In this document: positions 1,881 through 1,903 of the stretch, piece after piece | Layout of the letters: each line of letters opens with the position of its first letter | Numbering within the stretch: the stretch's first letter is position 1 | Assembly (NCBI RefSeq): GCF_003334815.1 | Contig: NZ_QOWO01000010.1 | Direction: 5' to 3' (one strand) | DNA: 64,000 nucleotides | Origin: Escherichia coli | GTDB lineage: Bacteria; Pseudomonadota; Gammaproteobacteria; Enterobacterales; Enterobacteriaceae | Program-made: the position numbers and the translations under genes | The notes under the pieces: generated by a model | The model's input: the letters and a program-made list of their open reading frames with translations, nothing else | Told to the model about the DNA's origin: nothing | Database searches by the model: none

Positions 1881-1903
1881 AATAAGTATGTTGTAACTAA
1901 AGT
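1881..1903 (+). promoter_or_regulatory. Replication terminator site TerB (Tus-binding)
   Basis: AATAAGTATGTTGTAACTAAAGT with GTTGTAAC core, 10 bp upstream of the tus start codon. Confidence 0.9.

Follow-up and report, generated by a model that had tools for sequence, protein, structure and literature searches.

The window, by which we mean the whole stretch of 64,000 nucleotides of Escherichia coli DNA that was analysed, contains the locus of tus, for which RefSeq lists the genes rstA, rstB, tus, fumC and fumA. The stretch from rstB to tus is present in 5424 of 5426 complete E. coli genomes. The protein encoded by tus shows 100% identity to crystallised Tus (chain A of PDB 1ECR, 2EWJ, 2I05 and 2I06) and matches the Pfam family PF05472 (Ter) with an E-value of 1.9e-136. 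Its start codon is the ATG at 1914–1916. A GTG at 1902, which appeared as the start of tus in a mechanically generated list of open reading frames, was rejected, since the ATG at 1914 encodes residue 1 of the crystallised Tus and is the start annotated in RefSeq. The features of the locus and the further Ter-like octamers of the window are collected in Table 1.

Table 1. Coordinates of the features at the rstB-tus locus and of additional Ter-like octamers in the window.
Feature	Position	Strand	Remarks
rstB	537–1838	+	Stop codon 1836–1838; transcribed toward the non-permissive face of TerB
-35-like hexamer TGGTCA	1853–1858	+	Putative; 17 nt upstream of TATAAA
Extended -10-like element TGcTATAAA	1873–1881	+	Putative tus promoter; its final A coincides with Ter position 1
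TerB, 23-bp Tus binding site (Ter positions 1–23)	1881–1903	+	Exact, unique match
Ter core (positions 5–19), AGTATGTTGTAACTA	1885–1899	+	Invariant except position 7 (93%)
Shine-Dalgarno-like AGTGGT	1901–1906	+	Putative; overlaps Ter positions 21–23
tus, 309-aa terminus site-binding protein	1914–2843	+	PDB identity, Pfam, RefSeq b1610
Extra GTTGTAAC octamers	18350–18372, 47963–47985	minus	Without consensus positions 18–19
Extra GTTGTAAC octamers	25449–25471, 62222–62244	plus	Without consensus positions 18–19

At its 3' end, tus is convergent with fumC and the two coding regions overlap by 4 nt (2840–2843). Here, the TAA stop codon of tus occupies 2841–2843 and the fumC stop codon is the complement of 2840–2842, an overlap that is annotated likewise in E. 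coli K-12 MG1655. This overlap leaves no intergenic space for terminators. Upstream of tus, no terminator-like site was found in the 42-nt gap between rstB and TerB (1839–1880), and the sole terminator-like candidate is a weak hairpin inside rstB (1771–1783).

The 23 nucleotides listed as TerB read AATAAGTATGTTGTAACTAAAGT on the plus strand and agree with the published TerB sequence at 23 of 23 positions. An earlier note on this DNA had recognised a 23-bp TerB between rstB and tus, and this turned out to be an exact as well as a unique match. It is the sole match on both strands of the window even if up to three mismatches are permitted, and at the same tolerance 0 of 100 dinucleotide-preserving shuffles contained a match. 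The search pattern for the Ter core, GNRNGTTGTAAYKA, reportedly goes back to Duggin and Bell in 2009. It matched the window a single time, at 1886–1899, with 0.06 matches expected; within this match, the GTTGTAAC core lies at 1890–1897 and the guanine of position 6, G(6), lies at 1886 on the plus strand. The comparison with the Ter consensus and its orientation, which the note had proposed as a check, thus speaks for TerB. The spacer between TerB and the ATG of tus is GGTTAATATT (1904–1913) and is exactly 10 nt long, as had been claimed. Furthermore, the 67-nt TerB substrate oligonucleotide of Pandey et al. 2015, which consists of the 23-mer and 44 nt of native flank, is identical to positions 1857–1923 of the window (PMC4499146). 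By this, the identity, position, orientation and uniqueness of TerB are established, and no observation spoke against the identification.

Neither the loose core pattern nor the full consensus revealed a second Ter site in the 64-kb window. With one mismatch allowed, the loose core pattern gave 8 matches compared with 3.4 expected, which is near chance. The seven one-mismatch Ter-like matches among them were rejected, since all of them fail the fuller consensus, and the four other GTTGTAAC octamers were likewise rejected as Ter sites on account of their positions 18 and 19.

The window is collinear with positions 1,682,346–1,746,272 of E. coli K-12 MG1655 at more than 99.9% identity. The differences over 64 kb amount to 12 SNPs and a REP unit of 73 bp, none of which is located at TerB. 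In MG1655, TerB (1,684,226–1,684,248) and TerC (1,609,157–1,609,179) share the plus strand, and dif lies at 1,590,750–1,590,777. The distance from TerB in the counter-clockwise direction, which is to the left, amounts to 75,047 bp for TerC and to 93,449 bp for dif, and both are therefore outside the window. The E. coli system is classified as a 'type II' fork trap, where the Ter next to tus plays a secondary role (PMC10331603). TerB is the second-line barrier for clockwise forks at the clockwise edge of the fork trap and not the terminus itself.

The GC skew of the window is mostly negative (-0.022 overall, p = 6e-5). All four KOPS motifs (GGGNAGGG; 7804, 29515, 42206 and 58608) are on the minus strand and point left toward dif; their total number is not above chance, and it is their strand bias that fits the replichore. 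The Chi sites, seven on the minus and five on the plus strand, are too weakly biased to be informative. Two exact matS sites (GTGACRNYGTCAC) are present at 21657–21669 in ydgJ and at 62879–62891 in ydhQ, whereas none would be expected. No dif site, no innermost Ter and no lasting sign change of the GC skew occurs inside the window, and the GC-skew switch, which had been suggested as a check, was not seen when the window was scanned for it. As is evident from skew and KOPS, the window is normally replicated from right to left, through the permissive face of TerB, and it lies on the replichore that is copied by the counter-clockwise fork. It is part of the Ter macrodomain but not the point of fork fusion. 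The earlier claim that TerB places the window at the replication terminus therefore holds as far as the macrodomain and the presence of TerB are concerned; it does not hold for TerC and dif, which are 75 kb and 93 kb away. As an anchor for annotation, TerB fixes the organism, the locus and the orientation and puts the window just outside the inner fork trap. For the rest of the window, this means that dif, a skew switch or the fork-fusion zone are not to be expected.

The function of Ter sites depends on their polarity. It has been reported that the cytosine of position 6, C(6), flips into Tus to form the lock (PMC4499146, PMC10331603). For a fork that is blocked, C(6) is on the leading-strand template and the helicase, moving 5' to 3', tracks along the strand carrying G(6) (PMC10331603, PMC4499146). 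In the window, C(6) is on the minus strand as the partner of the G(6) at 1886. Since G(6) is on the plus strand, the published role of C(6) implies that the blocked fork runs from left to right, from rstB to tus. The non-permissive face is therefore the end at 1881, which is directed to rstB, and the permissive face is the end at 1903, directed to tus. A fork blocked at TerB is a clockwise fork, which has already crossed dif and TerC. This polarity together with the chromosomal position fits a fork trap, in which entry into the terminus region is permitted and exit is blocked.

Tus binding, lock formation, fork pausing and autoregulation at TerB are known from published work, which comprises gel shifts and footprints, tus-lacZ assays in tus-null cells, fork pausing on 2D gels, ChIP-seq and crystal structures. 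In a Tus ChIP-seq study, TerB had a coverage of 430x, more than any other Ter site, and its lock with Tus is strong, with a half-life of 4367 s (PMC8707476). Polar arrest in vitro has been reported for the exact TerB sequence, and mutations of the G.C(6) base pair shifted the Tus affinity by up to about four-fold while fork arrest was strongly reduced (PMC4499146). [quoted passage not shown] In the wild-type, most clockwise forks were reported to be stopped at or before TerC (PMC8707476, PMC10331603). Since most of these forks stop by TerC, arrest at TerB is a back-up event.

To see how far the arrangement extends beyond E. coli, one genome per species was compared, which yielded 80 loci of Enterobacteriaceae from at least 17 named genera, with Tus proteins of 69–98% identity. 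The Ter pattern matches exactly once in each of the 80 loci of 3.9 kb, and in 80 of 80 species this match is located upstream of tus and on the tus strand. The gap between Ter and the start codon measures 6–10 nt in 76 loci, 18 nt in three (Kluyvera) and 27 nt in one (Intestinirhabdus). In an alignment of 81 sequences (80 distinct), Ter positions 5–19 are invariant except for position 7, which is conserved to 93%; position 20 is conserved to 90%. The G.C(6) pair is kept in 81 of 81 sequences. The intergenic columns flanking the Ter core carry 0.0–0.9 bits and are thus near-random. With respect to the neighbouring genes, rstB is located upstream in 75 and fumC downstream in 79 of the 80 loci, and the five loci without rstB (three from Lelliottia, one from Huaxiibacter and one from an Enterobacter MAG) have Ter 8–9 nt before tus. 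The linkage of site and gene has therefore been maintained in evolution, whatever the upstream neighbour is, and the conserved arrangement is established as well. Since the 80 species share ancestry and synteny, this represents one conserved arrangement under strong purifying selection and not 80 independent events. Vicinal Ter sites have been described previously (Toft et al. 2021, Goodall et al. 2021). Judged from the sequences compared, the footprint of 15 invariant base pairs with fixed strand and a spacing of 6–10 nt independently reproduces this published comparative work.

Within E. coli, the exact K-12 30-mer around TerB (window positions 1879–1908) is present in 2345 of 5426 complete genomes. 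Sampled alternative alleles of TerB, including those of 98197 and O157:H7 2149, differ only at positions 2, 3 and 7. The TerB-type allele of O157:H7 (2149) is ATTAAGGATG, also given as ATTAAGGATGTTGTAACTAAAGT, and has an unchanged core. Base pairs 1–5, 7 and 19–23 were described as the more variable ones of Ter sites (PMC10331603), and positions 2, 3 and 7 are among them. In E. coli KTa005 (NZ_CP147084.1, 2212828–2213024), unrelated DNA takes the place of rstB up to about window position 1853. Downstream of it, the block of -35, -10, TerB and tus is intact.

The second function of TerB concerns the expression of tus itself. Roecklein 1991 and 1992 and Natarajan 1991, as these are cited in later papers (PMC8707476, PMC10331603), describe TerB as part of the tus promoter or as overlapping with it, and the transcription of tus as repressed by Tus. 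In the window, a scan of positions 1700–2100 with a strict sigma-70 consensus called no promoter upstream of tus; it returned only a 9/12 match at 1955–1984, which is within the coding region. The -10-like element listed in Table 1 escapes such a scan since its TATAAA lacks the final T of the consensus. Without a call upstream of tus, the promoter assignment rests on conserved motifs and the literature. The candidate -35 hexamer is partly conserved in related species, as TGGTCA or TGGCCT. The AGTGGT motif, a putative ribosome-binding site, ends 7 nt and its GTGG core 8 nt before the ATG. Across species, the GG just 3' of Ter position 23 is conserved to 72–77%, and other genera have stronger AAGGTGG or GGAG motifs at this place. 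Since the space from the -10-like element to the ribosome-binding site is nearly all Tus site, a bound Tus would overlap the footprint of the polymerase. The geometry of the motifs together with the literature suggests that Tus occludes the tus promoter, although the exact promoter elements are putative and repression would be achieved by occlusion or by a roadblock.

A look at the other species suggests that the distance between promoter and Ter may come in two registers. In 62 of the 81 sequences, a TGnTA element begins 7–11 nt ahead of Ter position 1. The remaining 19 have a TAnnnT hexamer, often TATAGT, which begins 12–16 nt ahead of Ter position 1 and lies about 9 nt further upstream; they are mainly of the Klebsiella, Raoultella, Kluyvera, Pseudocitrobacter and Pluralibacter types. 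It is conceivable, albeit tentative, that promoter, Ter, ribosome-binding site and tus form one self-regulating cassette, which moves as a unit and exists in two promoter registers. If so, repression would act by occlusion of the -10 element in the register of the 62 sequences, and as a roadblock to promoter escape in that of the 19, where Ter would be located at about +1 to +23. The mechanism of repression by Tus would then differ between genera. An indivisible cassette, if true, would also fit the published idea that Tus-Ter was domesticated from a plasmid.

Taken together, the best explanation, to which we assign a probability of about 0.97, is that TerB is a high-affinity asymmetric site for monomeric Tus, which is both a polar barrier for replication forks and the operator of tus. 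Ter position 1 and the G.C(6) pair face rstB. A clockwise fork that had passed dif and TerC would move from left to right, with its helicase running 5' to 3' on the plus strand. This helicase would unwind TerB up to position 6, upon which C(6) would flip into the pocket of Tus and the fork would be locked out. Forks that come in over tus, as they normally do in this region, would displace Tus and pass. As the operator of tus, TerB would fill the space between the -10-like element and the ribosome-binding site. Here, a bound Tus would cover the -10 element, the +1 position and the early transcribed region and exclude RNA polymerase, keeping the level of Tus low. It is the classic case of a single protein-DNA complex with two jobs, a polar replication barrier and a self-repressing operator. 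The interpretation of the site given in the earlier note, namely that Tus binds here, arrests forks and regulates its own gene, is thus supported, with the functional part coming from published work. The TerB/tus module of the window is a textbook case that is already known; since it has been characterised since 1989–1991, it opens no new question.

Other explanations for a Ter site at this place have to be considered. A Ter adjacent to tus might be kept purely for autoregulation, with fork arrest being irrelevant since TerC intercepts the forks first. TerB is indeed not the innermost site, with TerC 75 kb closer to dif, the tus-linked Ter is regarded as secondary in reviews of the type II trap (PMC10331603), and the link between Ter and tus persists in all 80 species whichever gene lies upstream, all of which would suit a mere operator. 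Nevertheless, Ter has the same orientation in all 80 species as well, and the G.C(6) pair of the lock is invariant. Mutants of this pair nearly keep their affinity and strongly lose arrest (PMC4499146). Since the pair barely affects affinity, an operator alone would not need that base. [quoted passage not shown] Still far less probable, and in practice negligible, is a chance occurrence or a non-functional pseudo-Ter, similar to TerF, H, I and J, that is unrelated to Tus. The four other GTTGTAAC octamers that occur in the window by chance illustrate that the octamer alone is not diagnostic. These octamers, however, fail the wider consensus, while TerB matches at all 23 positions and is not found in any of the 100 shuffles at three mismatches. 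Furthermore, the site is invariant over 81 sequences amid diverged intergenic DNA and has the top occupancy in ChIP-seq (PMC8707476).

An additional role of the complex as a transcription insulator was considered as well. Here, Tus-TerB would block read-through from rstAB, by which tus would be uncoupled from the RstAB regulon and the Tus-Ter complex would be protected. Mohanty, Sahoo and Bastia reportedly described in 1996 a polar blockage of RNA polymerase by Tus-Ter. At the locus studied here, transcription of rstB runs toward the non-permissive face of TerB, and the gap of 42 nt between the two contains no terminator-like hairpin, which makes such a role plausible. In several loci of the Enterobacter type, as little as 31 nt separate the end of the rstB match from the start of tus. 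Such an insulator would supplement the main explanation and not replace it. The arrangement persists in the five loci that lack rstB, so that read-through from rstB cannot be what maintains Ter next to tus. Overall, we consider an additional insulating role rather unlikely.

At the TerB site of the window, there is no difference from TerB of E. coli K-12, which has the same 23 bp, the same flanks over at least 67 nt, the same neighbours (rstB, tus and fumC), the same 10-nt spacing and the same Tus. TerC of E. coli shares strand, polarity, the GTTGTAAC core and G(6) with TerB, and both block clockwise forks (PMC8707476). Its sequence, ATATAGGATGTTGTAACTAATAT, is reported to be 74% identical to that of TerB (PMC8707476). 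In contrast to TerB, TerC has neither a link to tus nor an operator role, and it lies nearer to dif by 75 kb. The 'Ter1' sites of type I fork traps in other Enterobacterales, for example those of Edwardsiella tarda and Dickeya paradisiaca (Toft et al. 2021), are found just before the ATG of tus and on its strand, and G.C(6) as well as a core of 12–15 bp are conserved. The tus-linked Ter of a type I trap is the innermost barrier, whereas in the type II trap of E. coli it is second behind TerC (PMC10331603). The terminator protein RTP of Bacillus subtilis is likewise autoregulatory, with a terminator located in the rtp promoter (PMC10331603). However, RTP has an unrelated fold and DNA site, and two of its dimers bind to the A and B half-sites without a lock formed by flipping of C(6) (PMC10331603). 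RTP and Tus are therefore analogous and not homologous.

Distant homologues of Tus, annotated as terminus site-binding protein, are encoded on 1282 plasmids of PLSDB, of which 1067 are conjugative, including IncC plasmids. They are about 29% identical to E. coli Tus over 83% of its length. Four of these plasmids were inspected, an IncC plasmid of K. pneumoniae (CDS 586–1461), the Vibrio plasmid pVPS91 (CDS 601–1497), one from Providencia and one from Klebsiella sp. In 0 of 4, a canonical Ter was found within 140 nt upstream of the gene when up to 4 mismatches to the 15-bp core were allowed. With the 15-bp motif, the Ter-tus footprint can therefore not be extended to plasmids. A promoter-like block, located about 35 nt before the ATG, is common to the IncC and Vibrio plasmids; it consists of TTGCAT-17-TACTAT/TAAAAT and then GTAAYCAATGA, and ends in ATGTAAYCAATGA. 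The block CTACTATGTAACCAATGA is located upstream of the gene for the IncC homologue (WP_001097010.1). The IncC/Vibrio block bears a partial resemblance to the Ter core, and it could be an operator or a divergent Ter of these plasmid proteins. The record NZ_OL790696.1 is filed as a plasmid and carries the chromosomal tus at 99.7% identity. Since it is an E. coli record of 4.8 Mb, it is a mislabelled chromosome and not a plasmid copy of tus. This record may also explain the single place reported as 'on plasmids' in the searches of E. coli genomes.

Apart from the locus itself, some minor features of the window were noted. The 73-bp REP unit that distinguishes it from MG1655 is an insertion at 53701–53787, where a cluster of REP elements separates sodB from ydhP. 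Direct repeats of 14 nt, CCGCATCCG(A/G)CAAG, flank the insertion, which is thus an ordinary difference in REP/BIME copy number. Offset self-matches between the window and MG1655 at 26230–26750, within rsxC, reflect tandem repeats of about 96 bp with 87–91% identity. The sole match in the window at the gathering score of Rfam is STnc550 (396 bits) at 55181–55571 on the minus strand; by offset from the MG1655 annotation, it covers cydH (ynhF) and its upstream region beside purR.
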